Origin: Escherichia coli
GTDB lineage: Bacteria > Pseudomonadota > Gammaproteobacteria > Enterobacterales > Enterobacteriaceae
Strand: one strand, 5' to 3'
NCBI RefSeq assembly: GCF_041248615.1
Contig: NZ_CP158426.1
DNA length: 64,000 bases
Below the pieces are notes generated by a model. That model searched no databases and was not told the origin of the DNA. It saw only the letters and a list, made by a program, of their open reading frames with translations. The position numbers were made by a program, and so were the translations under genes. This document shows, in pieces, positions 7,937 to 34,344 of the stretch (its first letter is position 1; every line of letters begins with the position of its first letter).

Positions 7937-8013
7937 TTACCTGTTAGGTAATAAAATATTCTAAAATCTATTGATTTCGTGTCTTATGTGGTTTTTAATT
8001 ACCTCAGAGGTAA
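7937..8013. promoter_or_regulatory. Two operator-like palindromes TTACCTGTTAGGTAA (7937-7951) and TTACCTCAGAGGTAA (7999-8013) flanking TTATGTGGTT motif
   Basis: Perfect TTACC-N5-GGTAA sites in gap between P-like gene and next gene; second site ends 3 bp before ATG 8017. Confidence 0.5.
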
Positions 8014-8016
8014 ATC

Positions 8017-8370
8017 ATGAGAAAACAGATACAGGCTCTTGGTCGACTCAAAACAGGTCAGATGAACAAAACAGAATCTGCGTATTGCCAGCACCTTGAG
8101 CTGCGTAAACGTGCAGGAGAAATCGTCTGGTATCGATTTGAGGGTATCAAGCTGCGGTTAGCTGACAACTGCTTCCTGACTGTAGATTTTGCCGTGATGT
8201 TGGCTGACGGGCAGTTGGTGATGGTGGACGTTAAGGGAAGTAAGTCAGTCTTTACTGACGATGCGAGAGTCAAGATGAAGGTTGCGGCAGACAGCTATCC
8301 GTTTGTCTTTCAGGTTGCTTATCCAAAACCTAAAAAGCTCGGTGGTGGATGGGAGGTTGAGGAACTATGA
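8017..8370 (+). CDS. Hypothetical protein, DUF1064-like, possible PD-(D/E)XK nuclease fold
   Basis: 117 aa; D...VDVKG motif; family assignment from memory only. Confidence 0.45.
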   Translation: MRKQIQALGRLKTGQMNKTESAYCQHLELRKRAGEIVWYRFEGIKLRLADNCFLTVDFAVMLADGQLVMVDVKGSKSVFTDDARVKMKVAADSYPFVFQVAYPKPKKLGGGWEVEEL

Positions 8371-8975
8371 GCGAGAAGCCCAATGCTGCGGGATTGATTG
8401 TATCCGGTGATAAAAACCCGAATTGGAAGGGTGGGAAAATCGAAAAGGTTTGTTCCGTATGTGGCAGGCAATATCAGGTTAAGCGAGCCAACTCATCTTC
8501 AAGGTTCTGCTCACTTCAGTGTGTAGGAATTTCACAGCGAGGCAAGACGGTAAATCGGGAACTAAAGCGAGTATTAAAAATATGCTGCGTATGCGGATCT
8601 TCGTTCTCCGTTTTCTTGAGTCATGAGAAGCGTCATAAATGCTGCTCGAAACAGTGTTCCAACATAATGCGTTCTTCTCTGATGAAGGGGGAAGGAAATC
8701 CAAACTGGTCTGGTGGATTATCGAGATTGCCGTATCCGTGGGATTTCCGAGAAACGAGCAAGAGGGTTATTGAGCGAGATGGTTTTACTTGTCAGAACCC
8801 AGGTTGTGATGGAACAGACAAAAGGCTAACAACTCATCACATCAATTACGACAAGCAAGACTGTCGTCAGGAGAACCTTATTTGCCTTTGTTCGAGCTGT
8901 AACTCGAAGGCTAATTTCGGTCGGCATAAGTGGCAAAAGTTTTATGAATCACTGATGAAAAATAGATCGGCATGA
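8367..8975 (+). CDS. HNH endonuclease with two N-terminal zinc-ribbon-like modules
   Basis: 202 aa; C-terminal HHINYDKQDCRQENLICLCSSCNSKAN (HNH motif); two CxxC...C..C clusters. Confidence 0.7.
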   Translation: MSEKPNAAGLIVSGDKNPNWKGGKIEKVCSVCGRQYQVKRANSSSRFCSLQCVGISQRGKTVNRELKRVLKICCVCGSSFSVFLSHEKRHKCCSKQCSNIMRSSLMKGEGNPNWSGGLSRLPYPWDFRETSKRVIERDGFTCQNPGCDGTDKRLTTHHINYDKQDCRQENLICLCSSCNSKANFGRHKWQKFYESLMKNRSA

Positions 8976-9036
8976 ATCGACGATCTTTTTAGTTATCAAT
9001 GTAATCAATAAGTTATGCGGATAAGCGAGGGTAAAG

Positions 9037-9618
9037 ATGGAAAGTAATATCAAAGGGTTAGTTGCCGCCGGGCATGAGATGGCTTCGGAACTGAAAGCAG
9101 AATGTGGTGCCGTTGATATGCGTAGTGTGGCAAAGCTGATCAGCGATTTGGCAACGCAACTGGAAGTGCAACTGGTGCGTGCTAATGCGCTGGCCGAAGA
9201 CCAACAGAAAGCGATTGAGTCAATTAAGCAGGCTGATTCGGCTGTTAAGTTGGCACACGAGAAGTTTTCGGCGCTGGCAGCGGAGAATGCAAAGCTGAAG
9301 AAGTTCTGCAAAGACGCTGCATTCGATGCCGATTACGAAGCAGAGCTAGGTATGGAGAGAGGTGGATTCAGTGATGCGCTTAACGAAATCAAAACCCCAG
9401 CCACCGATGCTTTCCTGGCTGAAGTGCGGGCGCAGGGCGTGGATGCTGCTATAGAAGCTGCAAAAAATCTGGTGGCCCAAGAATATGAGTATAAGGATTT
9501 CAAAGCGGCGCAGAGTGATTGCTGTATGCACCCTGGTTCAGACCTGGTAGGGAAGGTTGAAATAACTGAGTGGTTAGTTGACTTTGCTGCCCAGCTTCGC
9601 AAAGGAGGCAACCAGTGA
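9037..9618 (+). CDS. Hypothetical coiled-coil protein
   Basis: 193 aa, alanine/glutamate-rich heptad-like stretch; no motif recognised. Confidence 0.45.
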   Translation: MESNIKGLVAAGHEMASELKAECGAVDMRSVAKLISDLATQLEVQLVRANALAEDQQKAIESIKQADSAVKLAHEKFSALAAENAKLKKFCKDAAFDADYEAELGMERGGFSDALNEIKTPATDAFLAEVRAQGVDAAIEAAKNLVAQEYEYKDFKAAQSDCCMHPGSDLVGKVEITEWLVDFAAQLRKGGNQ

Positions 9619-10100
9619 CTGGACATGCAGCAATCCTCGACATGTGCTGTGGCAGTCGCATGTTCTGGTTCGATAAGAATGACGACCGGGCGATATTTAG
9701 CGATATCAGAAAGGAAGAGCACACATTGTGTGATGGACGACGGCTGATAATTAGCCCTGACCTGATAGCAGATTTTCGTGCATTACCATTTGCAGACGCA
9801 TCGTTTCCGGTTGTTGTATTCGACCCTCCGCATCTTGAGCGTGTTGGTGATAACGCTTGGATGGGAAAGAAATATGGACGGCTGAATAAAGATACCTGGC
9901 GTGATGATTTGCAGCAGGGATTTAAAGAAGCCTTTCGTGTGTTGTGGCCATACGGCGTTCTGATTTTTAAATGGAATGAAACGCAAATACCTGTTCGCCA
10001 AATATTGGCACTGACCGACAGAAAGCCTGTTATCGGTCAACGAACAGGAAAGGGTGACAAGACCCACTGGATTATTTTTATGAAGGAGGGCAACCAGTGA
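9615..10100 (+). CDS. Small SAM-dependent DNA methyltransferase (DPPH motif; N6-A or N4-C)
   Basis: 161 aa; motif I-like ILDMCCGSRMF and motif IV VVVFDPPH; GTG start overlapping upstream stop. Confidence 0.55.
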   Translation: MTGHAAILDMCCGSRMFWFDKNDDRAIFSDIRKEEHTLCDGRRLIISPDLIADFRALPFADASFPVVVFDPPHLERVGDNAWMGKKYGRLNKDTWRDDLQQGFKEAFRVLWPYGVLIFKWNETQIPVRQILALTDRKPVIGQRTGKGDKTHWIIFMKEGNQ

Positions 10101-10864
10101 GCAAAATTGACTATCAGGCACTGCGTGAAAAGGCAGAGAAAGCAACGTGTGGTGTGTGGTCGCTCGAATATGGAGAGAGCCGATTTGATTGTGATGATGC
10201 GCTAATTCATCGTGACGTTGTTGGATATCTTCCCATTTGCAGAATTGAAGGAGCGCATCCTGAAAGCGGTTTCGATGAAGATTTCCAGATGGAACAGCAG
10301 GCCAATGCTGAATTTATTGCTGCCTTTAATCCAAAGGTTGCTTTGGCACTACTGGATGAACGGAAAAAAAACCAGCAATACATCAAATCCCGCGACCAGG
10401 AGAACGAGGATATTGCGCTAACGGTAGGGAAGCTGCGCGTTGAGCTGGAAGCAGCAAAAAAGCGCATAGCAGAACTGGAGAAAAGCGAAGAGCAACTCAT
10501 CAACGAGCGTGACCATGCTGAGTCTGCTTTAGCTGATATGTACTTTGCAGCAACCGGGGATAGGCCTGAGTGGAGTAACTGGTTCGGCTTTTCAGATGCC
10601 GTCGATGCCGTAGTTGACAGAATTGCTGATTTAGAAGCTAAACAATGCATTGAAGAGATGAGTAAACAAAGTTGCGAAGCTCGGGAGCGTGATTTGTTTG
10701 AATCATGGGTAATGCATTCAATTTGTATTTCCAAATCGACGCTTGAAGGATTGCGCACCGAAACTGGATACCGTAACGCGACCTTATCAGGAACAGACTT
10801 CAACCGCATGTGGGAACAATGGAAATCTATCCGCGCCGCTGGCATTCGCATCAAAGGAGAGTGA
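10097..10864 (+). CDS. Ead/Ea22-like early protein
   Basis: 255 aa; N-terminus MSKIDYQALREKAEKATCGVW resembles Ea22-like prophage proteins (memory-based); central coiled coil. Confidence 0.5.
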   Translation: MSKIDYQALREKAEKATCGVWSLEYGESRFDCDDALIHRDVVGYLPICRIEGAHPESGFDEDFQMEQQANAEFIAAFNPKVALALLDERKKNQQYIKSRDQENEDIALTVGKLRVELEAAKKRIAELEKSEEQLINERDHAESALADMYFAATGDRPEWSNWFGFSDAVDAVVDRIADLEAKQCIEEMSKQSCEARERDLFESWVMHSICISKSTLEGLRTETGYRNATLSGTDFNRMWEQWKSIRAAGIRIKGE

Positions 10865-10865
10865 T

Positions 10866-11414
10866 ATGACCACTATAACCGATAAGAAACAGTATCCCAG
10901 CGAGCAATATCTTAATGAGCTGATCACCAACATAGAGTTTGCTGCAAGGGCACCAGTTGAAGTCGTGAGAGCGATGGCAGCAGAGCTACAGAAGCGGCGC
11001 GAAGCTGATAGTGCAGAACCTGCAAGTAATCATGAAGAGTTGCCGCTTGATTATCTCCAAGGTCAAAAAGATGGTCTTGAATGGGCTGCGCAGCTTGCAG
11101 AAGCAAATCACCCACAAACTGGCGACTGGCTTTACGATGACCCGCTGGAGCTGGCTAAAGCTATCAGAAAAGGTCCTGACATGCCCGAATTCGATGGACC
11201 AACTCCGGTAACTCCGGATGGTTGGATAAGCTGTAGTGAGCGAATGCCCGCTCAAGATGATTGGATTTTAATTTATTCAAAGCACGGCGAGTATATGGCA
11301 GGACAGGTACAAGGGGAATACGTGGAGTTGAGCGACGGCACTTTATCGTGGTTAGGGAACGCCTTGTACTGGATGCCTCTACCGGAACCGCCGCAGGAGG
11401 TTAACCGTGGCTAA
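10866..11414 (+). CDS. DUF551-like protein
   Basis: C-terminal WISCSERMP...ALYWMPLPEPP resembles DUF551 signature; ATG 10866 immediately after upstream stop (track ORF start 10743 rejected). Confidence 0.5.
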   Translation: MTTITDKKQYPSEQYLNELITNIEFAARAPVEVVRAMAAELQKRREADSAEPASNHEELPLDYLQGQKDGLEWAAQLAEANHPQTGDWLYDDPLELAKAIRKGPDMPEFDGPTPVTPDGWISCSERMPAQDDWILIYSKHGEYMAGQVQGEYVELSDGTLSWLGNALYWMPLPEPPQEVNRG

Positions 11415-11688
11415 CCTGCAACTAGCCGTTAAAGGTGAATACTTCGATGCCATCATTCGCGGAGAGAAAACGGAAGAGTATCGCCTGTGTAATGACTACT
11501 GGAATAAGCGAATTATGTTCAGGGATTATGACCGACTGATTATCACAAAGGGATATCCGAAGCGCGACGACTCCAGTCGTAGAATTGACGTCCCGTATGA
11601 CGGATATGAAATCAAGACAATCACACATCCCCACTTCGGCGATAAACCGGTAAAGGTATACGCGATAAAGGTAAATATTGATGGCTAA
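11407..11688 (+). CDS. ASCH-domain-like protein
   Basis: 93 aa; GEKTEEYR resembles ASCH GxKTxExR motif. Confidence 0.45.
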   Translation: MANLQLAVKGEYFDAIIRGEKTEEYRLCNDYWNKRIMFRDYDRLIITKGYPKRDDSSRRIDVPYDGYEIKTITHPHFGDKPVKVYAIKVNIDG

Positions 11689-12019
11689 ATCAGCAGCAGA
11701 GCGCAAAGCCGCTCAGAGAGCCAGACAAGCTGCATCTGGTGTGCGTAAGCTGGAGATTGTGCTTGATGCTCAGGAAATTGAAATGCTGGAGCGTAACTGC
11801 GCCGCCCGGCGCCCTGGTCGAGATCCCTATGAAATGGCCGAGTACATCGCGCTGCTGATCCGCCAGGATGATGCCCGGGTGCGCGGGCGTATAAAATCGA
11901 TCAGCAGAAAACGTTGCGGTAAGTGCGGCGAGAGAGTTCCAGTTAATTCATGCCCGTGCAATGGTGACTCGCAATGCTGGGTGACTAAAGGCTGGCATGA
12001 AACGAAATTAATAGTGTGA
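11678..12019 (+). CDS. Hypothetical protein with C-terminal Cys cluster (CGKCG...CPCNGDSQC); candidate regulator
   Basis: 113 aa; stop codon TGA lies inside palindrome GTGACATGTCAC; last gene before packaging module. Confidence 0.45.
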   Translation: MMAKSAAERKAAQRARQAASGVRKLEIVLDAQEIEMLERNCAARRPGRDPYEMAEYIALLIRQDDARVRGRIKSISRKRCGKCGERVPVNSCPCNGDSQCWVTKGWHETKLIV

Positions 12020-12027
12020 CATGTCAC
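12016..12027. repeat. 12-bp perfect palindrome GTGACATGTCAC (copy 1 of 3)
   Basis: Exact palindrome read in sequence; overlaps stop of upstream gene; terminator 41 bp downstream. Confidence 0.9.
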
Positions 12028-12068
12028 GAGTAGATTATGCATGATGAATTTGATGTGTTTTGAATACT

Positions 12069-12094
12069 GCCGCCAACTATGGCGGCTTTATTTT
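12069..12094 (+). terminator. Rho-independent terminator between early/middle genes and packaging module
   Basis: Stem GCCGCCA/TGGCGGC, loop ACTA, followed by TTTATTTT. Confidence 0.7.
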
Positions 12095-12105
12095 GCATGG
12101 TACTA

Positions 12106-12120
12106 TTACCACAACGGTAA
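12106..12120. promoter_or_regulatory. Operator-like palindrome TTACCACAACGGTAA upstream of terS (weaker second site 12124-12138)
   Basis: Perfect half-sites, 18 bp upstream of terS ATG. Confidence 0.5.
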
Positions 12121-12137
12121 CTATTACCACGGTGGTT

Positions 12138-12734
12138 ATGATGCCTGCTGAACCTAAAACCTATAAACGCAAATCAACGCAATTTAAGCCACTAACAGCA
12201 ATGCAGGAGGCTTATTGCCAGTCATACATCAAAACGCCTGAAAACCAGACTCAGGCAGCGATTAACGCAGGATTCTCCCCAAATACAGCGGCAGTTAAAG
12301 CCAGTGTCATGATGCGCGATGAACGCATTCAAAAACGGATTGCCGAGTTGATGGAGGAGCGCAACAAACGAATGCGCGTCAGTGCTGATTACGTTCTCAT
12401 GCGCCTGGTGGAGATCGACCAGATGGACGTGATCGATATCCTCAACGACGATGGGAGCCTTAAACCAATCCGTGAGTGGCCGAAAATCTGGCGCACTACG
12501 CTTAGTGGCTTTGATCTGTCATCGACCATCATGAACATGAACGAGGATTCGATAGAGACAATCCTCAAAAAAATTAAATGGCCTGACAAGGTGAAGAACC
12601 TCGAACTGATTGGTAAGCACGTCGACGTCAACGCATTCAAAGAACGCCTGGATGTTAATGTGAATGTGACAATTGCTGATCGCATAGCGGCAGCCAGGAA
12701 GAGACTGAAAGAACGTCAGGATGGCAATCAGTGA
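12138..12734 (+). CDS. Terminase small subunit
   Basis: LTAMQEAYCQSY...QTQAAINAGFSPNTAAVKAS...RIQKRIAEL resembles small-terminase family signature; track start 12060 lies inside terminator hairpin and is rejected. Confidence 0.75.
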   Translation: MMPAEPKTYKRKSTQFKPLTAMQEAYCQSYIKTPENQTQAAINAGFSPNTAAVKASVMMRDERIQKRIAELMEERNKRMRVSADYVLMRLVEIDQMDVIDILNDDGSLKPIREWPKIWRTTLSGFDLSSTIMNMNEDSIETILKKIKWPDKVKNLELIGKHVDVNAFKERLDVNVNVTIADRIAAARKRLKERQDGNQ

Positions 12735-14206
12735 CAGATACAGCGTTATCTCCTGAAGAGCAGTTAATCGAGGATATTGCAGGGTTCACTCACGATCCGC
12801 TTGGCTATGCCCTCTATGCGTTCCCGTGGGGGGAAGAGGGTACTGAACTGGCACATGCCACCGGTCCACGTCAGTGGCAGGCCGATGCGTTCCGAGAGAT
12901 ACGTGATCACCTGCAGAATCCAGAGACGCGATATCAGCCGCTTATGCTGGCACGTGCTTCTGGTCACGGTATTGGTAAATCCGCATTCATCTCAATGCTG
13001 ATCAACTGGGGCATGTCCACTTGCGAGGATTGTAAGGTCGTGGTGACCGCCAACACCGACAACCAGCTACGAACGAAGACCTGGCCGGAAATTATCAAGT
13101 GGTCGAACCTTGCTATCACGAAAGACTGGTTTACCTGTACCGCTACCGCGATGTACAGCAATGACCCTGGGCACGACAAGCGGTGGCGAGCTGACGCAAT
13201 CCCCTGGTCTGAGCACAACACTGAGGCATTCGCCGGACTACACAACGAGCGCAAACGCATCATCGTGGTATTCGACGAAGCATCCAACATTGCCGATCTG
13301 GTGTGGGAGGTAGCAGAGGGTGCGCTGACGGACGAAGACACTGAGATTATCTGGGTGGCATTCGGAAACCCTACACGTAACACCGGGCGTTTCCGCGAAT
13401 GTTTCCGCAAATATAAACACCGCTGGAAAACTGCGCAGATTGACAGCCGGACGGTGGAAGGCACTAACAAACAGCAGTTGCAGAAATGGGTTGATGACTA
13501 CGGGGAAGACAGCGACTTCGTTAAAATCCGTGTGCGCGGCATATTCCCGGATGCATCTGAATTGCAGTTTATCCCTACCGGCCTTACTGACGAGGCAATG
13601 AAACGGGTGGTAACCGCTGCGCAGGTTGCACATGCTCCGGTGATAATCGGCGTTGACCCGGCATACTCCGGCGTTGATGACGCTGTGATATACCTGCGGC
13701 AGGGGCTGCACAGTAAGGTGCTATGGACTGGTAACAAGACCACCGACGATCTGATTATGGCGAAGCGTATCGCTGACTTTGAAGACCAGTACCAGGCTGA
13801 CGCAGTGTTCATCGACTTCGGTTACGGAACTGGTCTGAAGTCAATCGGTGATGGCTGGGGACGTACATGGCAACTTGTTCCGTTCAGCGGTGCGTCCACT
13901 GACCCGCAGATGCTTAACAAGCGTGGGGAGATGTTCAACTCATGCAAGACATGGCTGAGGCTGGGCGGCATGCTGGATGACCAGGAAACAGCAGACGACC
14001 TGTCGGCGGCAGAGTACAAAGTTCGAGTGGACGGTAAAATCGTTATCGAACCGAAGGAAGATATCAAGGAGCGGCTTGGGCGTTCTCCTGGTAAAGGCGA
14101 TGCGCTACTGCTGACGTTTGCGTTCCCTGTGTCGAAGCGTCTGCGAATTCCCGGGCAGCAGAACCAGCAAGGCAAGGCCATCACAGATTACGATCCATAT
14201 GCTTAA
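12731..14206 (+). CDS. Terminase large subunit
   Basis: 491 aa; Walker A-like ARASGHGIGKS; ATPase and nuclease-type layout; overlaps terS stop. Confidence 0.85.
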   Translation: MTDTALSPEEQLIEDIAGFTHDPLGYALYAFPWGEEGTELAHATGPRQWQADAFREIRDHLQNPETRYQPLMLARASGHGIGKSAFISMLINWGMSTCEDCKVVVTANTDNQLRTKTWPEIIKWSNLAITKDWFTCTATAMYSNDPGHDKRWRADAIPWSEHNTEAFAGLHNERKRIIVVFDEASNIADLVWEVAEGALTDEDTEIIWVAFGNPTRNTGRFRECFRKYKHRWKTAQIDSRTVEGTNKQQLQKWVDDYGEDSDFVKIRVRGIFPDASELQFIPTGLTDEAMKRVVTAAQVAHAPVIIGVDPAYSGVDDAVIYLRQGLHSKVLWTGNKTTDDLIMAKRIADFEDQYQADAVFIDFGYGTGLKSIGDGWGRTWQLVPFSGASTDPQMLNKRGEMFNSCKTWLRLGGMLDDQETADDLSAAEYKVRVDGKIVIEPKEDIKERLGRSPGKGDALLLTFAFPVSKRLRIPGQQNQQGKAITDYDPYA

Positions 14207-14280
14207 TCCGCTGGTGGGGATAATACTGCTGATATCCTCTGGTGAGGATAAAACAAAGCCAGCTCATCGGCTGGCTGTTT

Positions 14281-14292
14281 GTGACATGTCAC
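14281..14292. repeat. 12-bp palindrome GTGACATGTCAC (copy 2 of 3)
   Basis: Exact; 4 bp past stop of minus-strand gene 14297..14653 and directly followed (minus orientation) by hairpin AGCCAGC/GCTGGCT plus T-run. Confidence 0.9.
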
Positions 14293-14296
14293 GGTG

Positions 14297-14653
14297 TTAT
14301 TGCTCGCTTAACTTCTGCTTCAGCAAGTAACCTTCGAGCATCCAGATTTTGTTTACAGCATTCTGCCGGGCAATCTTCCGACCAATTTCTGCATCAAAAT
14401 TTTCCGGACTTGCACAGGCACTCTCTCCGGTGACGGTGAAGCCATTCTTCAGTACCAATACGCAGAAAGTCAGGAGGTCTGTAGATTTATGCGCTGTCCA
14501 TGAATCGCCAACACCCATATTGGCAGCACGAATGCCGTCATAAGCAGTAAAGAAATGCTCTTCAAGAATGATGCTTTCGATATATTGAGGCGTAACGCGC
14601 GGTGCCGTTTTGCCTTTCTCAACGATTTCTTTTTCGATTTGCTGGTCGTTCAT
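14297..14653 (-). CDS. Hypothetical moron protein, antisense to virion genes
   Basis: 118 aa ORF with SD AAGGTGAG upstream of ATG; lies between terL and portal on opposite strand with own terminator; family unknown. Confidence 0.5.
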   Translation of the reverse strand: MNDQQIEKEIVEKGKTAPRVTPQYIESIILEEHFFTAYDGIRAANMGVGDSWTAHKSTDLLTFCVLVLKNGFTVTGESACASPENFDAEIGRKIARQNAVNKIWMLEGYLLKQKLSEQ

Positions 14654-14766
14654 AATCTCACCTTAAAAAAATGCCCGGCGAACCTGGCGAACTGGAAGCA
14701 ATGAGTTATGCCTTCCGTGGCTGTACGGGTTTACAGCATGAAGTCATCGCAATGGCGTCCTGCTGT

Positions 14767-14809
14767 AAAAAAGGGCGGTGATAGTCCTTCAAGGGAAACT
14801 ATCACCGCC
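14767..14809 (-). terminator. Rho-independent terminator downstream of tRNA-Arg
   Basis: 12-bp perfect stem GGCGGTGATAGT/ACTATCACCGCC with A-run on plus strand (T-run on minus). Confidence 0.7.
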
Positions 14810-14852
14810 AAGCCCCTGGAACTTCTGGCATCACGGTCCTTAGGCGTGATTC

Positions 14853-14929
14853 TGGCGTGGCATGCAGGATTCGAACCTGCGACCAACCGCTTAGAAGGCG
14901 GTTGCTCTGTCCGACTGAGCTAATGCCAC
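14853..14929 (-). tRNA. tRNA-Arg (anticodon UCU), phage-encoded
   Basis: 77 nt; reverse complement GTGGCATTAGCTCAGTCGGACAGAGCAACCGCCTTCTAAGCGGTTGGTCGCAGGTTCGAATCCTGCATGCCACGCCA; 7-bp acceptor stem, T-loop GGTTCGAATCC, anticodon loop CTTCTAA, encoded CCA; close to E. coli argU in layout. Confidence 0.85.
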
Positions 14930-15251
14930 AACGCTGAGAGCACTTAGCCTGTTAAGGCGCCACACTTTGTCGCGGCTCCATAAATGCTCTCATCGTTGTA
15001 CCCTCGTCTCTTCCGAGGCGTCACACCGAATCGCCGGGATGGTGAATCCCCGTGCGCGGAATAAAACCGCTCGACTTGCACATTCCGGCTACCTGGTTCG
15101 TTTGCCCGAGCAAGGGAGGGTGCCCCTTAAACGTATCCAGACCGCTATCGGCGCATGTGCCATACACCGTACTGCTCAAAATAAAATCTCACTCCACCTG
15201 TTCAATTTAACGACAGGCCAGTCAGGTTAGTAACCGGAATGAACTCTTTGG

Positions 15252-15266
15252 TTACCTGAAAGGTAA
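15252..15266. promoter_or_regulatory. Operator-like palindrome TTACCTGAAAGGTAA upstream of head gene cluster, followed by ATATGTGGTT-N5-GGTAAT (15309-15329)
   Basis: Perfect TTACC-N5-GGTAA; downstream motif shared with tailspike upstream region. Confidence 0.5.
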
Positions 15267-15356
15267 TAATTTGTGCGTTAAATGTCAACTGTCTACGATA
15301 AATAAATCATATGTGGTTAAATTGGTAATAATTTAATTGCGTACGGAGTCATTGAT

Positions 15357-15563
15357 ATGTGCATGGGTAGCTCACCATCAGTGCCTGCAACACCAGAAGT
15401 TCAGGCAGCACCACAGGAGCAGGATGCCGCCGTTGTTGATGCCCGCGACGAAGAAACTCGTCGCCGTCGCGCTGCTGCTGGTCGTAGTTCTACGCTGCTT
15501 ACCGGTTCTCAGGGCGACACATCAACCGCTAATACCAGCGGTAAAACGCTGCTTGGTCAGTAA
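15357..15563 (+). CDS. Small Ala/Arg-rich head-module protein
   Basis: 68 aa; shares translation initiation context CGGAGTCATTGA(T/A)ATG with portal gene. Confidence 0.4.
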   Translation: MCMGSSPSVPATPEVQAAPQEQDAAVVDARDEETRRRRAAAGRSSTLLTGSQGDTSTANTSGKTLLGQ

Positions 15564-15577
15564 CCGGAGTCATTGAA

Positions 15578-18248: not shown

Positions 18249-18256
18249 GAGAGGAA

Positions 18257-19249: not shown

Positions 19250-19300
19250 CGCCTGTTATTAACCTGTGGGTCGTAACAGACCCACTAATGGAGAAAGAAG

Positions 19301-19738: not shown

Positions 19739-19739
19739 G

Positions 19740-20084
19740 GTGATATCGATGTCAGGTGAGAAACCAAGATACCGCGTTCTGCGCCTCTCTCATATCCATA
19801 ACACACTGTGGCCGGAGGGGGCAGAAATCGAATACGAAGGTGAGCCTGGTAGCGCACTGGAACCTGTTAACGATGCAGCCAGACAGGCAAAAGCAAAAGT
19901 TGCAGGAAAGGTGTCTATGGCAGCAACCAGCATCAAAATCATCAACGATGTGTCAGATGATGGTGAACTGGATAAGCTCCGTGAAGAGTACGAATTGCTC
20001 TTTAACGAGAAGCCACACCATAACGCCAAAGCAGAAACGCTCCGCGAGAAGATCGCAGATAAGCGTAAAGAACTGGGCGTGTAA
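19740..20084 (+). CDS. Hypothetical structural-module protein
   Basis: 114 aa ORF followed by terminator. Confidence 0.4.
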   Translation: MISMSGEKPRYRVLRLSHIHNTLWPEGAEIEYEGEPGSALEPVNDAARQAKAKVAGKVSMAATSIKIINDVSDDGELDKLREEYELLFNEKPHHNAKAETLREKIADKRKELGV

Positions 20085-20100
20085 GCCTCGCGAATCAGAC

Positions 20101-20122: not shown

Positions 20123-20134
20123 GCAGGAGTGTAT

Positions 20135-28855: not shown

Positions 28856-28860
28856 ATTAA

Positions 28861-31335
28861 ATGAGACAGGAATGTATACAAGCGGTCCAGCAGGCGGCGC
28901 AGCGCACGTTAACGGCGCGAGAAATACAGAACATTGAAGACCGCATTTATCGAAATATGCGCTCCATTGCTCGTGATGACCCGATGTCGTGGAGACAACT
29001 TTCCGAATCAGAGCGGCTATATCGTGCAGCACAATTGGCATCTGAGGAATTACAGCGAGAAGCGGCATTAAAGAAACGTCGTGTGGCCCTCACTATAGCC
29101 GCACGTCAGAGATTGGATAAATTTATCAATAGCTATCAAGGGGCTGATGGGAAACTTGGCGCTCTTAACCGTACTATTGCTTTTAATGCAGACGGTAAAT
29201 CGAATTTCCTCTCTGTTGAGTCCAGAACAAAAGCCACTCGTGATTATGCATTGAGTCAATTGCAGGAGGCATTCGAAGCAGTTGATCCTCGCTTTTTTGG
29301 TCTGTTTGAAGATGAAGCGGGCGTACGTGACCTGGTATATGAAATGCGAGGGCAAAATACTGGCAATTCTAAAGCAAGAAAAGGTGCTAAGGCGTGGAGA
29401 GAAGTGACAGATCTACTGCGCCGCCGGTTTAATGATGCTGGTGGGGACATTGGCTATCTCGAAAACTGGGGGATCCCTCAGCATCATTCTATGGAAAAGG
29501 TTGGGGCGGTATCAAAGGATAAGTGGGTTAGCGATGTTATAGGTAAGCTGGATCGCAAATATTATATCCGAGCCGATGGACAACTGATGAACGATGCCGA
29601 GTTGTCTGCATTTCTTGGAGAGGCTTATAACACGATCGCTACTGGTGGGCTGAATAAGCTTACTGATACCGGAATGCGAATTTCCGGCGCACGTGCTAAC
29701 CGTGGTAATGCATCACGACAGATACATTTCAAAGATGCAGATTCCTATCTGCAATATCAGCAACTTTATGGCGATCGCTCTCTATGGGAAATCATGGTCG
29801 GTCACCTGGAAGGTATCAGTAAAGATATTGCACTGGTGGAAACATATGGCCCAAACCCCGATCATGTTTTCCGCTCTCTTCTTGATCAGGTGAAGGCAGA
29901 AACGGCAACAGCTAACCCGAGTAAAACCGGTAAAGTCGAGCGGCTGGCGAACAACACAGAGAATCTGTACAACTTTATTTCCGGAAAGACACAGCCTGTA
30001 GCGAATCCGCACATCGCGCGATGGTCTGACAATATCCGCAACTGGCTGGTTGCCAGCAGACTCGGATCTGCGTTGCTATCATCGTTCTCTGATCTTGGAA
30101 CCATGTATCTGTCTGCGAAGGTGACCAACCTTCCAATGAACCAGTTATTCCGCAACCAGCTTGAAGCTATGGACCCAACGAACCGTACAGAACTTGCGCG
30201 GGCGCGCCGCGCTGGTCTGGCGATGGAATCTCTACTTGGCAGCGTTAACCGCTGGGCGATGGATAATATGGGGCCGTCAGTGTCTCGTTGGGCGGCAACG
30301 GCGGTAATGCGTGCCAGTGGGCTTACAGCATGGTCAGATGCGCACAAGCGCGCCTATGGCGTAACCATGATGGGAAGCCTGGGAGAAGTAGTGTCACGGA
30401 CACCAGACCTTCGTAGCCTCGATGATTCTGATTTTCGTATCCTGAAAAGCAAAGGGATTACTGACACAGACTGGAGCGTATGGAAGCTGGCGCAACAGGA
30501 GGACTGGGGGAACGGTAATAATACGATGCTGACACCGGAAAGCATTATGCGTATCCCTGATTCAGCAGTTAAACATCTTGGTGAGCCTGAGCGCGTGAAA
30601 TTTGAGGCAATGCGTAAATTGCTAGGTGCCGTAACTGAAGAAGTTGATATGGCTGTTATTACACCGGGAGCTCGTGAGCAACTGATAACCGGTTCTGGTA
30701 TTCAGCGTGGAACATGGAAAGGTGAATTAACGAGAAGTGTTTTCCTGTTTAAATCTTTCCCTATCTCGGTTGTTATGCGTCACTGGTCACGCGCTATGGG
30801 TATGCCGTCTGCTGGTGGGCGTGCGGCATATATTGCGACGTTTATTGCCAGTACGACCATTCTTGGCGCTTTGTCGCAGCAACTTAACGACCTTGCGTCT
30901 GGTCGTAATCCTCGAGAGATGACAGGAGAAGATGCCGCAAAATTCTGGCTTGGTGCTCTACTGAAAGGTGGTGGTCTTGGCCTTTACGGTGACTTTTTAT
31001 TGTCAGATCACACCAGGTACGGAAGCGGCGCGCTGGCGTCGATGCTTGGCCCGGTAGCTGGTCTGGTTGATGACGTGGTGAAGATTGCTCAGGGCATACC
31101 GTTAAATGCTGTGGAAGGGAAGAGTGAGCAGACTGGTGGTGATCTGGTGAAGCTGGGGAAAGGTTTGATGCCTGGTGCGAATCTCTGGTATTTGAAGGCG
31201 GCTCTCGATCACATGATCTTTAACCAGATGCAGGAGTATTTTTCACCAGGCTATTTGCGTAAAATGGAGCAACGTTCGAAGAAAGAGTTTAACCAGACAT
31301 ACTGGTGGCGACCTCAGGATGTCACTCCGCAATAA
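28861..31335 (+). CDS. Large internal virion / ejection protein
   Basis: 824 aa, third of three consecutive large genes before tailspike. Confidence 0.5.
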   Translation: MRQECIQAVQQAAQRTLTAREIQNIEDRIYRNMRSIARDDPMSWRQLSESERLYRAAQLASEELQREAALKKRRVALTIAARQRLDKFINSYQGADGKLGALNRTIAFNADGKSNFLSVESRTKATRDYALSQLQEAFEAVDPRFFGLFEDEAGVRDLVYEMRGQNTGNSKARKGAKAWREVTDLLRRRFNDAGGDIGYLENWGIPQHHSMEKVGAVSKDKWVSDVIGKLDRKYYIRADGQLMNDAELSAFLGEAYNTIATGGLNKLTDTGMRISGARANRGNASRQIHFKDADSYLQYQQLYGDRSLWEIMVGHLEGISKDIALVETYGPNPDHVFRSLLDQVKAETATANPSKTGKVERLANNTENLYNFISGKTQPVANPHIARWSDNIRNWLVASRLGSALLSSFSDLGTMYLSAKVTNLPMNQLFRNQLEAMDPTNRTELARARRAGLAMESLLGSVNRWAMDNMGPSVSRWAATAVMRASGLTAWSDAHKRAYGVTMMGSLGEVVSRTPDLRSLDDSDFRILKSKGITDTDWSVWKLAQQEDWGNGNNTMLTPESIMRIPDSAVKHLGEPERVKFEAMRKLLGAVTEEVDMAVITPGAREQLITGSGIQRGTWKGELTRSVFLFKSFPISVVMRHWSRAMGMPSAGGRAAYIATFIASTTILGALSQQLNDLASGRNPREMTGEDAAKFWLGALLKGGGLGLYGDFLLSDHTRYGSGALASMLGPVAGLVDDVVKIAQGIPLNAVEGKSEQTGGDLVKLGKGLMPGANLWYLKAALDHMIFNQMQEYFSPGYLRKMEQRSKKEFNQTYWWRPQDVTPQ

Positions 31336-31344
31336 GGAAGTGTT

Positions 31345-31518
31345 GTGTTTTTAATTATTTTGAGTGTAATAATTTCTGGTGGATTGTTATTTATTGACCA
31401 CTACAAATATTTTCTTAACCCTCAGACTCAAGCTATTTGCTGGTTCATCTTTGTTGTGCAGGGAGTAGTTCTTGTTGCAAGCCTTATTGAGGGGAGGCCT
31501 CTTATTTTTACTGGGTAA
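31345..31518 (+). CDS. Possible small hydrophobic protein (57 aa)
   Basis: GTG 31345 with SD AAGGA 5 nt upstream; hydrophobic translation; below track threshold. Confidence 0.3.
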   Translation: MFLIILSVIISGGLLFIDHYKYFLNPQTQAICWFIFVVQGVVLVASLIEGRPLIFTG

Positions 31519-31530
31519 ATAGGTGACTAC

Positions 31531-31827
31531 ATGCAAGCTATAGGATTCATTGTTTATATCGTCGTTGGTCTTTTTCAGTTGGCAGCAATTATGGCTGGGC
31601 TTGAATCATGGTGGGGATTGCACTGGATAATTGCAGCCCCCATCGCTTTCATCGTGAGCTATATTCCATTTGTTGGAGCGATTGTTGGTATGGTTGGCGC
31701 TGTGGATGTATGGCGGTGGGAGTGGTGGCAGGCTGGCCTTCTATTCTTTGGTGGGATAATCTTTGCTATTGTCTGCGGTGGAATGTCATCATTTTTCGAA
31801 TGGCTATCATTCAGAAAAGAGACGTGA
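31531..31827 (+). CDS. Small integral membrane protein (3 predicted TM helices)
   Basis: 98 aa, highly hydrophobic; stop TGA lies inside GTGACATGTCAC. Confidence 0.5.
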   Translation: MQAIGFIVYIVVGLFQLAAIMAGLESWWGLHWIIAAPIAFIVSYIPFVGAIVGMVGAVDVWRWEWWQAGLLFFGGIIFAIVCGGMSSFFEWLSFRKET

Positions 31828-31835
31828 CATGTCAC
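31824..31835. repeat. 12-bp palindrome GTGACATGTCAC (copy 3 of 3)
   Basis: Exact; overlaps stop codon of membrane protein gene; terminator hairpin starts at next base. Confidence 0.9.
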
Positions 31836-31860
31836 AGGCCGCTTTCGCGGCCTTGTTTTT
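31836..31860 (+). terminator. Rho-independent terminator
   Basis: Stem AGGCCGC/GCGGCCT, loop TTTC, followed by TGTTTTT. Confidence 0.7.
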
Positions 31861-32020
31861 AACGAATGCCACCGCCGCCCGGGCGGGAATCCGCAGAACG
31901 CCCACCGCAGCGGGAGCCGTCAGCGGCAGTATCGCTGTCGTGCTGACAACGGCCGGCAAAGGCCTGAGTTGAAGCTACCAGAGACAACAAAACGAACAGT
32001 GCAGCAAATGCTTTTTTCAT
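31859..32020 (-). CDS. Possible small secreted protein (signal peptide), start at internal Met
   Basis: MKKAFAALFVLLSLVASTQAFA signal-like N-terminus; weak RBS. Confidence 0.3.
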   Translation of the reverse strand: MKKAFAALFVLLSLVASTQAFAGRCQHDSDTAADGSRCGGRSADSRPGGGGIR

Positions 32021-32094
32021 TGTGAAAAATTTCCATCTATAAGCCACCTCAATGTGGCGTCAATGAGTGTAGCACTGACTTTTGTTTCGTCCAC

Positions 32095-32117
32095 AAAAAA
32101 GCCCGCAGCGCGGGCTT
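32095..32117 (-). terminator. Rho-independent terminator of AT-rich moron gene
   Basis: Stem GCCCGC/GCGGGC with A6 on plus strand; overlaps stop codon. Confidence 0.65.
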
Positions 32118-32655
32118 ACCAAAACTTGTACCACGGGGATTTATCCTTCAATGGACAATCCTTCCATCGTGTGGCCAACCATTCATATTCTTTAAAATAT
32201 GTGTTTATGTTTTCTTTTTCTCTAATGGCTTGTATAAGAGGTAGCGCAATCTGATAGTTATTTACAACGGAGCTGTAAAATACTTCCTTAATCATGGTCT
32301 CATCATAAGTTTTCCGCTTCACGCTCACAGCCATGCGTTCGTAGAAACCTAGACAGTAAATTATTTCTCTCTTCTCTGTCTTTTCTTCATCCGTAAGATC
32401 AGCCTGCCCATTGCTTGGATACATATAAGAGCGGAATGATTTGTTCGATTCGTGAATGCGGCGCATAGTAGATAGGCCTTTCTTATAATCTACATCAAAC
32501 CTGCTTTCACCAAGGAATACTGAAGTGTGTACTTTTCTCGCTGTATTTACATTATAAATAATAGTAGCGATAGCTATGAACAAGCCAAGCGAAACCGCGA
32601 CTGCACTTACGATTTGAGCCACAGCCATGGCAAATTGCATTTCTTCACTTAACAC
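32116..32655 (-). CDS. AT-rich moron: membrane-anchored protein (N-terminal TM helix plus ~140-aa cytoplasmic domain); candidate superinfection-exclusion / abortive-infection factor
   Basis: 179 aa; GC visibly lower than flanking phage DNA; own GTG start with GGAGA SD, own terminator; lies in a position analogous to P22 sieA (between ejection genes and ant). Confidence 0.55.
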   Translation of the reverse strand: MLSEEMQFAMAVAQIVSAVAVSLGLFIAIATIIYNVNTARKVHTSVFLGESRFDVDYKKGLSTMRRIHESNKSFRSYMYPSNGQADLTDEEKTEKREIIYCLGFYERMAVSVKRKTYDETMIKEVFYSSVVNNYQIALPLIQAIREKENINTYFKEYEWLATRWKDCPLKDKSPWYKFW

Positions 32656-32784
32656 AAACTGTCTCCAGACATGAAAACGGGGCCTAATGGCCCCGTCATT
32701 AAACTATCCGAATGTTAAACGCCTTCGTACTCGTCAAATTTTCTCATGTGGGCTCCTCCTGTATCGGTGCCTAATCGCTATGGA

Positions 32785-32799
32785 TCACCCGTGAGGTAA
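32785..32799. promoter_or_regulatory. Operator-like palindrome TCACCCGTGAGGTAA
   Basis: TTACC-N5-GGTAA variant in gap between moron and ant genes. Confidence 0.4.
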
Positions 32800-32865
32800 T
32801 AGTAAGCTATTCACCTGCAATCTGTACAGAATTATTTAAAGGCACATCCCTGTGCCGCCGCCCCG

Positions 32866-33576
32866 TCAGAAGAACCCTGCCTTGTCGTTGATGTATTCCG
32901 CGTGAGTCTGGATATCACGCAGGCATTTGCTCACACCGACGATGTAGCAAAACATGGTGGTCAGCTCCGCCGCCGCGCCCGATACGTCGTGCCCGTCGTC
33001 CTGTAACTGGTTCAGCAGATTCATCAGCAGTGAGTTCTCCGTCAGGCCGAGAACACCAGACGGAGAATGAATCAGACTGCGGTAGCCGGGCTTCAGTGGG
33101 GCGCTGTAGGTTTTGTTCTCTATCTTCATTGCCTGCATCACTGCTGATGCTGTGGCGTTGGCTACCTGGTCGGCAACCATCTTTATGCGTTCTTCCTGCG
33201 GGAGCGAGTTTTTAATGTAACTTCCGGTGCGGCGGATCTGAGGAAGAACCTCACCTGTAACCCATTTACGAAAGCGGTAGGGGATAGTGCCTGGTGTCAC
33301 CGCATCGCGGCAGCGGAGGATCAGTGTGTAGAGGCCTGACTCGGAGATGATGTTGATCTCTTTTACTCGGCTGTCAAAAATCGCACGATGTTCATGCCCT
33401 ATGTTGAACATAGACCTTTCATCATCATCCAGTTTTTCAAGTGATTGGGTGACGTTTTGGATACGCAGCGCACTACAAACGTCTTGGGCTACAAACCATG
33501 GTTGGCCATCGATAATGATGGAACGGATAGGGTTAACAGATTCAAATTTGAAGATGGCAGTTTGAGCATTAGCCAT
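32866..33576 (-). CDS. Antirepressor (Bro-N domain plus C-terminal Ant-type domain)
   Basis: N-terminus FKFESVNPIRSIIIDGQPWFVAQDVCSAL...ISESGLYTLILR...VLPQIRRTGSY is a Bro-N signature; ATG 33576 has GGAG SD (track GTG start 33591 rejected). Confidence 0.7.
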   Translation of the reverse strand: MANAQTAIFKFESVNPIRSIIIDGQPWFVAQDVCSALRIQNVTQSLEKLDDDERSMFNIGHEHRAIFDSRVKEINIISESGLYTLILRCRDAVTPGTIPYRFRKWVTGEVLPQIRRTGSYIKNSLPQEERIKMVADQVANATASAVMQAMKIENKTYSAPLKPGYRSLIHSPSGVLGLTENSLLMNLLNQLQDDGHDVSGAAAELTTMFCYIVGVSKCLRDIQTHAEYINDKAGFF

Positions 33577-33594
33577 GGTGGTTATCTCCACTTA

Positions 33595-33608
33595 GTGATT
33601 TTAATCAC
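33595..33608. promoter_or_regulatory. Near-perfect 14-bp palindrome GTGATTTTAATCAC overlapping ant ribosome-binding region
   Basis: Read in sequence; 6/7 half-site symmetry; directly upstream of ant SD. Confidence 0.4.
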
Positions 33609-33731
33609 CACCGCAACGCCAATTACTGGTGGTGAACTGGACAAGGTTGGCGTACCGGCCTAAGTGGTACCGGCGTCCTTTCGGACCCCTGCCCAGCCCA
33701 CCATAATTCGGATATAGCTGTGCTTAACGCA

Positions 33732-33755
33732 TAAAAAAACCACGTCTGGCGTGGT
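33732..33755 (-). terminator. Rho-independent terminator downstream of small antirepressor-domain gene
   Basis: Stem ACCACG/CGTGGT with A7 run on plus strand. Confidence 0.6.
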
Positions 33756-33845
33756 ATGCGCCACTTAGTAACTCGGGACGCCAATCCCGGCACTGGATTT
33801 TGCCAGTGCCAGATTACTATGGCACAAGAGGAGTGCGATGTAAAT

Positions 33846-33860
33846 TTACCGCAAAGGTAA
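33846..33860. promoter_or_regulatory. Operator-like palindrome TTACCGCAAAGGTAA
   Basis: Perfect half-sites, 32 bp beyond the 3' end of gene 33892..34149. Confidence 0.45.
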
Positions 33861-33891
33861 ATATAAGCACTCCAGTTGGTAATTGCAAACC

Positions 33892-34149
33892 TTATCTGGT
33901 TTGTTTTCGTAATTGTTCGGCACAATAGTCGAGATGTGTTTGCAGATCCCGCATAGACATCTGTGAGCTGGTGACGTAGTTAATCAGTGCAGTCAGTTCG
34001 GCAAGTGGGCCATCGACATTAAATCCATCCTTATCGAGATCCCGGAGTAATTTCATCAAGTGCGATCCCTCCACCAGTGACCTGACGCCTCCCGGCGTGT
34101 GAATCCTTTCGGTAAATCCGTCTTCCAGTGGATAGTGATACTGCTGCAT
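33892..34149 (-). CDS. Small stand-alone antirepressor-domain protein (85 aa), LexA-box controlled
   Basis: ATG 34149 with SD GGAGAAG; sequence aligns with C-terminal ~65 aa of the Bro-N antirepressor (IH-P-GV...LM-LL..L..DG..V.G..AELT...YV...RD-QTH..Y); LexA box 22 bp upstream. Confidence 0.5.
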   Translation of the reverse strand: MQQYHYPLEDGFTERIHTPGGVRSLVEGSHLMKLLRDLDKDGFNVDGPLAELTALINYVTSSQMSMRDLQTHLDYCAEQLRKQTR

Positions 34150-34168
34150 CTTATCTTCTCCATGCAAT

Positions 34169-34188
34169 AACTGTATATTTATACAGTA
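34169..34188. promoter_or_regulatory. LexA (SOS) box AACTGTATATTTATACAGTA
   Basis: CTGT-N8-ACAG with AT-rich spacer, near consensus TACTGTATATATATACAGTA; immediately upstream of small antirepressor gene. Confidence 0.7.
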
Positions 34189-34225
34189 GCAAATAATTTG
34201 TTTGCTATCCAGCACGTTTTGCAAA

Positions 34226-34240
34226 TCACCTGAAAGGTAA
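34226..34240. promoter_or_regulatory. Operator-like palindrome TCACCTGAAAGGTAA in divergent region upstream of tailspike; followed by ATATGTGGTT-N5-GGTAAT (34271-34291)
   Basis: TTACC-N5-GGTAA variant; shares ATATCTATTCGTA 13-mer with site at 5981. Confidence 0.45.
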
Positions 34241-34344
34241 TATCTATTCGTATTTACAGTCTTTCTATCCATATGTGGTTTTTCAGGTAATAGAATAACC
34301 AGATATGCGGCGCAACGGGTGCTGCGACTATCTGGAGATTTAAC

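Follow-up and report, generated by a model that had tools for sequence, protein, structure and literature searches.

Introduction

The Uetakeviruses, such as epsilon15, phiV10, SPC32H and SPN1S, are structural and biotechnological models, used for instance as reporter phages for Escherichia coli O157 and Salmonella. For SPC32H, whose sequence record names rep, ant and tsp, induction by a LexA-controlled antirepressor (Ant) has been described (PMC9638917). The repressor, Rep, is a tetramer with a tetramerization domain of the DNA-looping type and with paired domains about 100 Å apart (PMC9986798; PMC9638917), and its middle HTH_3 domain has been described as a dimerization domain (PMC9986798). 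Despite the atomic-level structure of Rep-Ant, the mechanism of repression by Rep is not well characterized (PMC9986798). The epsilon15 RefSeq record already annotates as repressor binding sites palindromes homologous to TTACC-N5-GGTAA, which are located before terS, the head genes, the tail fibre gene and the homologue of the gene here called gene 8017, with three more at PL, the leftward early promoter. The present analysis concerns a stretch of 64,000 nucleotides of E. coli DNA (contig NZ_CP158426.1, hereafter the window). A Uetakevirus prophage, of the phiV10/epsilon15 type, takes up positions 1 to about 39300, and the analysis deals with a short motif repeated ahead of its late genes. This motif combines one arm of a 14-bp dyad with half of a repressor site. 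The dyad, named M in this work, recurs at seven predicted promoters and adds a new cis-element to the known repressor-operator system.

The window contains homologues of both proteins of known structure (PDB 5D50, chains A and E): Rep is encoded at 4966-5550, minus strand (match to 5D50_A with E = 1.9e-41; Pfam HTH_3 plus a YdaS-like helix-turn-helix, HTH), and Ant at 33892-34149, minus strand (match to 5D50_E with E = 2.4e-46). A near-consensus LexA box occupies 34169-34188, directly upstream of ant. Judging from these sequences, induction is expected to be SOS-dependent, by way of the LexA-controlled antirepressor and not by cleavage of the repressor.

Results

The repeated motif is part of a 14-bp dyad

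The preliminary description of the window had pointed out a motif, ATATGTGGTT-N5-GGTAAT, upstream of the head genes and of the tailspike gene, and a related variant upstream of gene 8017, each of them preceded at 40-50 bp by a TTACC-N5-GGTAA palindrome (hereafter the Rep operator). Concerning the occurrence of these sequences, it was correct. The 21-nucleotide pattern, ATATGTGGTTNNNNNGGTAAT, occurs exactly at 15309-15329 and 34271-34291, both on the plus strand, and no further copy was found in the window even with two mismatches, versus 0.01 copies expected (100 shuffles). The variant upstream of gene 8017 is TTATGTGGTT, at 7984-7993. The operators begin at 7937, 15252 and 34226, the last one reading TCACC; measured from start to start, they precede the motif by 47, 57 and 45 bp, so that the distance given held at two of the three sites and was exceeded at the head site. 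The 8-mer ATGTGGTT has three copies in the 64 kb, all on the plus strand, at 7986, 15311 and 34273. Their number by itself is not significant (2.5 expected), but their location is: they lie 24-64 nt before the starts of genes 8017, 15357 and 34345.

Conservation was studied by aligning seven genomes, i.e., the window, phiV10, epsilon15, Tyrion, SPC32H, Klebsiella phage BUCT711 and Enterobacter phage BUCT554, and by comparing 28-49 close E. coli prophage variants from IMG/VR with TerL 99-100% identical. The head and tailspike motif is exact or near-exact in the six phages aligned with the window, and the pattern TAT-NN-GGTT-N5-GGTAAT has exactly two matches in each of the seven genomes. The alignment resolved ATATGTGGTT as the right part of M, with a consensus of approximately AWCCATATRTGGTT, in which 4-bp arms (AACC/GGTT) enclose an AT-rich centre of 6 bp and the right arm is the more conserved. 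Upstream of the lysis genes of phiV10 and Tyrion, M has its full form, a perfect palindrome (AACCATATATGGTT). The bases next to the right arm, on its inner side, differ from one genus to another and also within the set of E. coli prophage variants. The motif first noticed is a composite formed by the right arm of M, five variable nucleotides and a half Rep operator, GGTAAT, which is invariant at the head and tailspike sites of all seven genomes. Compared with the full 15-bp operator, it agrees only in the right half, GGTAA; its left half, TGGTT, matches TTACC at one position out of five.

M recurs at seven promoters of the window: PL, the promoter following the cro-like gene (after-cro), and those of gene 8017, head, bro, tailspike and lysis. 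Four of these copies had not been noticed before, owing to differences in the central bases or in strand. A position weight matrix (PWM) for M retrieved, at 11 bits or more, 8 loci in the window against 1.8 strand-hits in shuffles, a figure to be read bearing in mind that the matrix was trained on these same sites and that the independent evidence is the conservation across genomes. M is present in 7/7 genomes at the after-cro, head, tailspike and gene-8017 sites, in 6/6 at the lysis site and in 5/7 at PL, the genomes bearing it being phages of four host genera (E. coli, Salmonella, Enterobacter and Klebsiella).

The head copy, AATCATATGTGGTT (15305-15318, plus strand, PWM score 21.1), includes ATATGTGGTT at 15309-15318 and is near-invariant in the seven genomes and in 49 E. 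coli prophage variants; 5 nt further on, its GGTAAT half-operator (15324-15329, plus strand) closes the promoter spacer on the 3' side. The tailspike copy, ATCCATATGTGGTT (34267-34280, plus strand, PWM score 22.4), includes ATATGTGGTT at 34271-34280 and occurs in the seven genomes with variation of the two bases before GG; its GGTAAT (34286-34291, plus strand) abuts the -10 element. At this site GGTAATAGAAT is kept in six genomes and is replaced by GGTAATAAACT in the seventh. The copy at gene 8017, TGTCTTATGTGGTT (7980-7993, plus strand), has only the right arm, contains TTATGTGGTT, lies in the promoter spacer and is near-invariant in 46 prophage variants. The after-cro copy, AACCAAATCTGGTT (6011-6024, plus strand), starts 5 nt past an operator (5991-6005), overlaps the -35 hexamer and was also found in dozens of IMG/VR contigs. 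At PL, M is on the minus strand (4852-4865, the plus strand reading ATGCGTATCTGGTT) within the spacer, and it is a perfect palindrome in Tyrion. The bro copy, AACCAGATAAGGTT on the minus strand (33888-33901), abuts the -35 hexamer and is present also in phiV10 and Tyrion. Finally, the lysis copy, AACCATATATGGAT (37271-37284, plus strand; core palindrome CCATATATGG), is upstream of the lysis cassette with TGTAAT directly after it, and a homologous AACCATATATGGTT precedes the lysis genes of five other genomes, 29 nt past a Rep operator. M was absent from the rep-cro region, where there are already three full operators. Neither M nor the composite M-N5-GGTAAT appeared in any of the annotated sequence records examined, and no description of them was found in the accessible literature.

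The interval between tailspike and lysis genes (36927-37344) differs from that of phiV10 and epsilon15, as it has neither the O-antigen-modifying gene nor a Rep operator; in their place it has AT-rich DNA, about 400 bp long, which includes a bidirectional terminator at 36931-36950 and, just past the dyad, an inverted repeat, ATTGTAA-N7-TTACAAT.

Coupling of M to the Rep operators

Allowing one mismatch at most, TTACC-N5-GGTAA has 16 matches in the window versus 1.1 expected (about 15-fold), 13 of them inside the prophage, and the operators occupy the same syntenic positions in the seven genomes. Those related to M are located upstream of the head promoter (15252-15266; homologous to the annotated epsilon15 site 2931-2947), between the divergent ant and tailspike promoters (TCACCTGAAAGGTAA, 34226-34240; homologous to the annotated epsilon15 site 19895-19911), on both sides of the gene-8017 promoter (7937-7951 and 7999-8013), at PL (4832-4846 and 4894-4908), before the after-cro M (5991-6005, mentioned above) and over the start of the bro promoter (33846-33860). 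The operators upstream of head and tailspike also serve divergent leftward promoters, and the one at the tailspike site abuts the -35 hexamer of the LexA-controlled ant promoter.

The distances between M and these operators follow a simple pattern. Measured from centre to centre, M is 19.5 bp from a full operator at the after-cro, PL and gene-8017 sites (at the latter, the downstream operator), and the other distances are 40.5 bp at tailspike, 41.5 bp at bro, 42.5 bp at PL and gene 8017 (upstream operator), 43.5 bp at lysis and 52.5 bp at head, all of them within 1.5 bp of a whole number of helical turns. The position 5 nt past M is occupied by a full operator at gene 8017 and PL, and by a half-site at head and tailspike, while the after-cro site shows the mirror-image order (operator, 5 nt, M). 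The gaps of 38, 26 (tailspike), 28 and 29 (lysis) nt have identical lengths in all the genomes examined, although at tailspike and lysis the identity of the gap sequence is 50% on average and as low as 31%, and the adjacent tailspike leader has accumulated indels between genomes. Because the lengths have remained fixed despite the divergence in sequence, the operator and M can be considered functionally coupled. The motif is strongly constrained and physically coupled to the repressor operator, M being in helical register with a full operator at six of the seven promoters. The exception is the lysis copy of the window, around which no full operator was found within 150 bp. It is worth noting that in four promoters (after-cro, head, tailspike and lysis) 60-82 bp separate the centre of the full operator from the predicted transcription start downstream of it, a distance too long for the operator to block the polymerase alone.

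Several other observations concern the operators themselves. In IMG/VR prophages (loci L009-L088), the homologues of the operators at 7937-8013 and 15252-15266 have five hypervariable central bases between invariant half-sites; in sequence terms, this is what the footprint of an operator looks like at the population level. The head operator provides, with one of its half-sites, the -10 element of a leftward promoter on the minus strand, TTGACA(15288-15283)-17-TACCTT(15265-15260), which points towards tRNA-Arg(UCU) and p03 and whose -35 hexamer and spacing are kept in the seven genomes. At terS, the start annotated in phiV10 (a TTG, equivalent to window position 12060) precedes both a strong terminator hairpin (12067-12095) and two adjacent operators (12106 and 12124); by comparison with Tyrion and epsilon15, the real start was placed at an ATG near 12141, directly after the second operator. 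The right half of the latter is GGTTA instead of GGTAA, and these two forms are exchanged between genomes.

A module of the same type was found in an unrelated myovirus, the Psychrobacter phage pOW20-A (L209, 8760-9760). It encodes a CI protein with an N-terminal HTH like that of Rep and a different, longer C-terminal domain, together with a Cro homologous to the cro-like product of the window (5705-5935) and five operators of the ATACC-N5-GGTAT type. This makes the HTH/operator module older and more widespread than the Rep-Ant architecture.

Predicted promoters and the position of M

Sigma70 hexamers were scored at aligned offsets over the seven genomes, and with a consensus scanner, so that all the promoters mentioned here are predictions; the literature that could be searched gave neither mapped transcription starts nor RNA-seq data for these phages. 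The tailspike promoter, TCCATA-17-TAGAAT (34268-34296, plus strand), matches the consensus at 8/12 positions, with a mean score of 7.1 bits for its -10 over the seven genomes, and its counterpart in epsilon15, TTCATA-17-TAGAAT (9/12), is the only promoter-like match in the ant-tailspike intergenic region. The head promoter, obtained from a seven-genome PWM scan, is weak: ATCATA-17-TAATTT (15306-15334, plus strand), with TAAATT (15318-15323) as an alternative -10. For gene 8017, TTGATT-17-TTTAAT (7971-7999, plus strand) has both hexamers conserved in the seven genomes; another candidate spanning the upstream operator, TCGACA-16-TAAAAT, was rejected as its -35 is not conserved among the prophage variants. 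The after-cro promoter, TTGATC(6023-6028)-17-CAAAAT(6046-6051), plus strand, is present in all seven genomes. The leftward promoters, on the minus strand, are PL, TTGACA(4874-4869)-17-AATCAT(4851-4846), and that of bro, TTGCAA-17-TATATT (33888-33860). The lysis promoter of phiV10, TTAACC-17-TATAAT, has a 10/12 match to the consensus. In the window, transcription is predicted to begin near 34303 (tailspike), 15341 (head), 8006 (gene 8017), 6058 (after-cro) and, on the minus strand, at about 4839 (PL).

These results do not agree with the earlier view that the spacing of the motif is unfit for sigma70. Hexamers 16-18 bp apart and conserved in relatives were found, and the motif lies inside the -35/-10 pairs, mostly in the spacer; at head and tailspike the composite covers the -35 hexamer and the whole spacer of weak promoters of the sigma70 type. 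Nor is the dyad the mark of a specialised late promoter class, since it is shared by the early PL, after-cro, gene-8017 and bro promoters. With reference to the predicted starts, the centre of M falls in the 3' part of the spacer, at about -19.5, in PL and gene 8017, at about -40.5 in after-cro, at about -41.5 in bro, at about -29.5 in tailspike, where the left arm forms the -35 (head has the same geometry), and at about -26.5 in phiV10 lysis. Therefore, M has no fixed position relative to the predicted -10 elements, its centres being near -41, -29.5, -26.5 or -19.5.

Considered in the context of the gene map, the head and tailspike motifs sit where rightward late transcription must restart past leftward inserts. 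Between positions 14000 and 17000 the window shares 95-99% identity with phiV10, ZX5, TL-2011b and other related phages of E. coli, and the gene order of the prophage is that of phiV10: rep, cro-like (5705-5935, with a homologue in pOW20-A), replication genes, gene 8017, p55, terS and terL, followed by the leftward insert of p03 and tRNA-Arg(UCU) (14853-14929, minus strand), by the head/tail genes from 15357 on, by the leftward insert of bro and ant, by tailspike (34345-36927) and by the lysis genes (37344-39141).

An element acting at the RNA level was also considered but is not supported: on folding, the head region had z = -1.8 and the gene-8017 region z = -1.1, and no structure was common to the sites. 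The only significant hairpin, a strong one (z = -3.4, the region folding at -25 kcal/mol), is downstream of the motif, in the 5' leader of tailspike (34299-34340). Its 3' arm enters the Shine-Dalgarno sequence, GGAG, and its GC-rich core stem is kept in the seven genomes with one compensatory change.

Candidate regulators p55 and p42

Two genes had been proposed in the preliminary description as candidate regulators, and neither of them seems to fit. One is p55 (11678-12019; phrog_536), the product of which has a Cys-rich C-terminus; its AlphaFold2 model was too poor for use (predicted local distance difference test, pLDDT, 53). This gene is always accompanied by its own palindrome, GTGACATGTCAC, and the Pectobacterium myovirus ZF40 has a p55 homologue and GTGACATGTCAC but neither M nor Rep operators. 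The other is p42 (6086-6286), the first gene past the after-cro promoter; its product has 66 residues and a CxHGH...CxxC motif. This N-terminal Cys/His (zinc-finger) module is common in nucleases of many unrelated lytic phages: among those infecting Vibrio, Klebsiella, Xanthomonas and Pseudomonas, many endonucleases of the HNH, endonuclease VII and homing types have it at their N-terminus. Other conserved small genes, namely a PerC-like gene, one of the AlpA family and p39, are further candidates.

The palindrome GTGACATGTCAC is a perfect 12-bp dyad with three copies in the window (12016-12027, 14281-14292 and 31824-31835; 0.13 expected), each adjoining an intrinsic terminator. The first copy follows closely on the stop codon of p55, with the hairpin ahead of terS about 40 nt further downstream; the second is just past the terL terminator and the third directly before the terminator of the structural operon. 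The palindrome is found at the same syntenic sites in the other Uetakevirus genomes compared, most of them with three copies. ZF40 likewise has three copies, and the lambdoid phage Chlobot has one; in these two phages one copy is directly past the p55 homologue. By these associations, p55 and GTGACATGTCAC resemble a mobile module, with a possible role in the control of termination or read-through in the late operons.

Heteroimmune relatives were sought in two ways. A TerL scan of IMG/VR returned only prophages 99-100% identical, and in a scan with the after-cro composite pattern every genuine match had the same type of operator. The Cobetia phage Carin1 showed no operator, no M and no GTGACATGTCAC, and was too distant.

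Discussion

The motif was originally interpreted as the signature of activator-dependent or otherwise specialised late promoters. This interpretation is partly supported, as the sequences do belong to promoter regions preceding late genes and are coupled to operators, yet they neither are specific to late genes nor form a class incompatible with sigma70. Altogether, M looks more like a repressor-linked control element than like a special late-promoter signal.

The explanation that we favour, tentatively and with a probability of about 40%, is that M is a promoter-proximal operator element by which a loop-forming Rep tetramer would silence promoters in the lysogen. M, together with the half-site where there is one, would constitute the low-affinity, promoter-proximal part of a bipartite operator. 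The Rep tetramer, with its p53-like looping domain and four DNA-binding domains, would bind the strong TTACC-N5-GGTAA site and would then occupy also M, either by adjacency (19.5 bp) or through a short loop (40-53 bp). Occupancy of M would occlude RNA polymerase where the distal operator (-60 to -82) cannot do it by itself. Upon SOS cleavage of LexA, Ant would be released and Rep dismantled, and all these promoters would fire, those of head and tailspike restarting rightward transcription past the leftward-transcribed inserts. All this supposes that M is bound by Rep and not by another protein, that no activator is needed for the promoters to work, and that loops do form.

Several observations are in agreement with a role of Rep. 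M is always on the core promoter or abutting it, but at differing positions, a pattern typical of operators and not of activator sites. In phiV10, the only full operator of the lysis promoter is about 70 bp upstream, and M is the only conserved element on the core promoter; as this promoter is near-consensus and must be silent in the lysogen, something has to shut it off. The arms of M have the ACC/GGT core of the Rep half-site, and the exchange of GGTTA and GGTAA at the second terS operator points the same way, as does the absence of M from the rep-cro region with its three full operators. In addition, the lineages that lack M at a given promoter have Rep sites at the same position instead: the PL regions of epsilon15 and SPC32H contain a third operator, while in a Pectobacterium prophage the PL spacer contains repeats of GGTAAT, and two full operators are located at the gene-8017 homologue. 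The recognition helix of Rep, NLVNRW, is invariant in six genomes, although Rep as a whole is only 42-45% identical between lineages. As the known lysogenic regulator, Rep is, on these comparisons, the best candidate to bind M.

Other observations weigh against it. The centre of M has 6 bp, versus 5 bp in every recognised Rep operator, and its outer arm bases are AACC instead of TACC, so that a pair of HTH domains tuned to N5 may refuse M. The middle HTH_3 domain, with a 434-like architecture that would suit a 14-bp dyad, has a variable recognition helix. The lysis promoter of the window bears M far from any full operator, which suggests that M may bind its protein alone. The -35 hexamers of head, tailspike and most lysis promoters are poor, as expected of activator-dependent ones. 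And the positions of M relative to the promoters are based on predicted -10 elements.

The last but one of these points leads to the original idea in a generalised form, i.e., that M is the site of a phage-encoded activator which offsets weak -35 hexamers, straddling the -35 at head and tailspike, like lambda CII at PRE, and acting in a class II-like manner at about -41 in after-cro and bro. It would account for the poor hexamers (ATCATA, TCCATA, and the non-conserved ones of lysis), for the M centres at -40.5 and -41.5 in two promoters and for the strong conservation of the dyad. Moreover, at head and tailspike the 4-bp arms, 6 bp apart, flank the -35 hexamer, much as in the TTGC-N6-TTGC layout of lambda CII. 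Nevertheless, in PL and gene 8017, which have near-consensus -35 hexamers, M is in the spacer, and a protein bound at that place should repress; the distance of M from the -10 changes from promoter to promoter; the lysis promoter of phiV10 reaches its 10/12 match without help; and neither of the proposed regulators seems to suit the role, p55 going with a different palindrome and p42 being a widespread module. An activator seems, for these reasons, rather unlikely.

M could also be read by a dedicated phage factor, distinct from Rep, the Cro-like protein and p55, which would switch the transcription programme from one type of site. It would occlude PL and gene 8017, where M is in the spacer, and, in the manner of lambda CII, it would activate head, tailspike and lysis by straddling the -35. 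The access to M would be gated by Rep molecules bound nearby, in register. We regard such a factor as unlikely.

The Cro-like protein, as a lytic-phase regulator with sites beside the Rep operators, could be the binder of M. Its HTH is of the same type as that of the N-terminal domain of Rep (27% identity over 41 residues) and is invariant in six genomes, matching an invariant target, so that two invariant HTH proteins could pair with two invariant families of dyads, the operator and M. However, a Cro must act on the rep-cro control region, which has no M, and pOW20-A combines a homologous Cro, of similar recognition helix, with ATACC-N5-GGTAT operators and no intergenic M, which implies that this type of Cro goes with the N5 operator. 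It would also make little sense for a Cro to repress the head, tailspike and lysis promoters during lytic growth. The comparison with pOW20-A and the absence of M from the rep-cro region disfavour this protein, and its binding to M is decidedly unlikely.

It could be argued as well that M has no dedicated binder, and that we are dealing with duplicated promoter cassettes maintained by contacts with RNA polymerase or by the shape of the DNA, the CATATATG centre being flexible. The strength of a promoter can be affected by an AT-rich spacer, and the head and tailspike regions both carry ACCTGAAAGGTAATA and CATATGTGGTT, which suggests common descent. But the parts of M that are invariant are the arms, and the centre and flanks vary; the changing position of M with respect to the -10 is incompatible with a single type of polymerase contact; and both the dyad symmetry and the operator spacing have been kept across near-random divergence of sequence. 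Cassettes without a binder are thus very unlikely.

Last, a loading site for a processive antiterminator of the Q or AlpA type might be located in a promoter spacer: the AlpA element of P. aeruginosa was first described as GGGACG-N5-GGTA between -35 and -10, and the lambda Q binding element has the same location (PMC7969949). Even though GGTT-N5-GGTAA fills the head and tailspike spacers up to -13 and the late region is punctuated by terminators, this possibility is highly improbable, as the seven-genome alignments show no conserved -10-like pause hexamer downstream of the predicted starts, M, located between -35 and -10 at head, tailspike, PL and gene 8017, is upstream of the -35 in after-cro and bro, p55, which occupies the Q-like position, has its own palindrome, and the 'AlpA family' protein of the prophage, with 82 residues and a weak PF05930 match, shares a name but no demonstrated homology with the AlpA of P. 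aeruginosa, whose contact residues are numbered up to 142 (PMC9371919). Known host elements were discarded: by inspection, the GG-N10-GC spacing of sigma54 promoters is not present and half-sites for CRP, IHF or PhoP give no consistent match, and a DnaA box (TGTGGTTAA, 8/9) is matched at the head site only, G-to-A variants breaking it elsewhere.

If Rep does act through M, a second conserved class of dyad, present on seven core promoters, would explain in concrete, testable terms the silencing of all lytic transcription units by a single repressor; otherwise, M points to a missing regulator. For engineers of these phages, the bases around the head, tailspike and lysis promoters are best left undisturbed. 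M opens no new category of biology.

In its geometry, M is equal to the 14-bp operators of the 434 type, with 4-bp arms and a 6-bp centre, which are bound by dimers of XRE/HTH_3 proteins. Rep does have an HTH_3 middle domain, but it has been described as a dimerization domain, and its recognition helix varies between lineages. With the late promoters dependent on P1 Lpa, P2 Ogr or Mu C and with those dependent on lambda CII, the M-bearing promoters share a weak or absent -35 and a conserved element that replaces or straddles it; they differ in that M is found also in early promoters with good -35 hexamers and at variable positions relative to the -10. The stoperators of mycobacteriophage L5 are many repressor sites spread over a prophage, and the likeness is that of one repressor with a dozen or more sites across early and late regions; in the window, however, the sites are symmetric, are located at promoters and not within transcription units, and belong to two classes. 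Another close parallel is the Rep-Ant-LexA switch of SPC32H and epsilon15, with which the window shares both proteins, the LexA box and the syntenic placement of the operators; the differences are that M and M-N5-GGTAAT are unannotated there, and that M departs from the operator in having a centre of 6 bp instead of 5 and AACC/GGTT arms. As to looping operators (those of the lambda CI, lac and gal repressors and of pLS20 Rco), the similarity lies in a strong site and a second site in register, served by a tetrameric repressor (PMC9986798), while here there are two sequence classes of site, the loops would be very short (40-53 bp), and Rep is a candidate binder of the second class.

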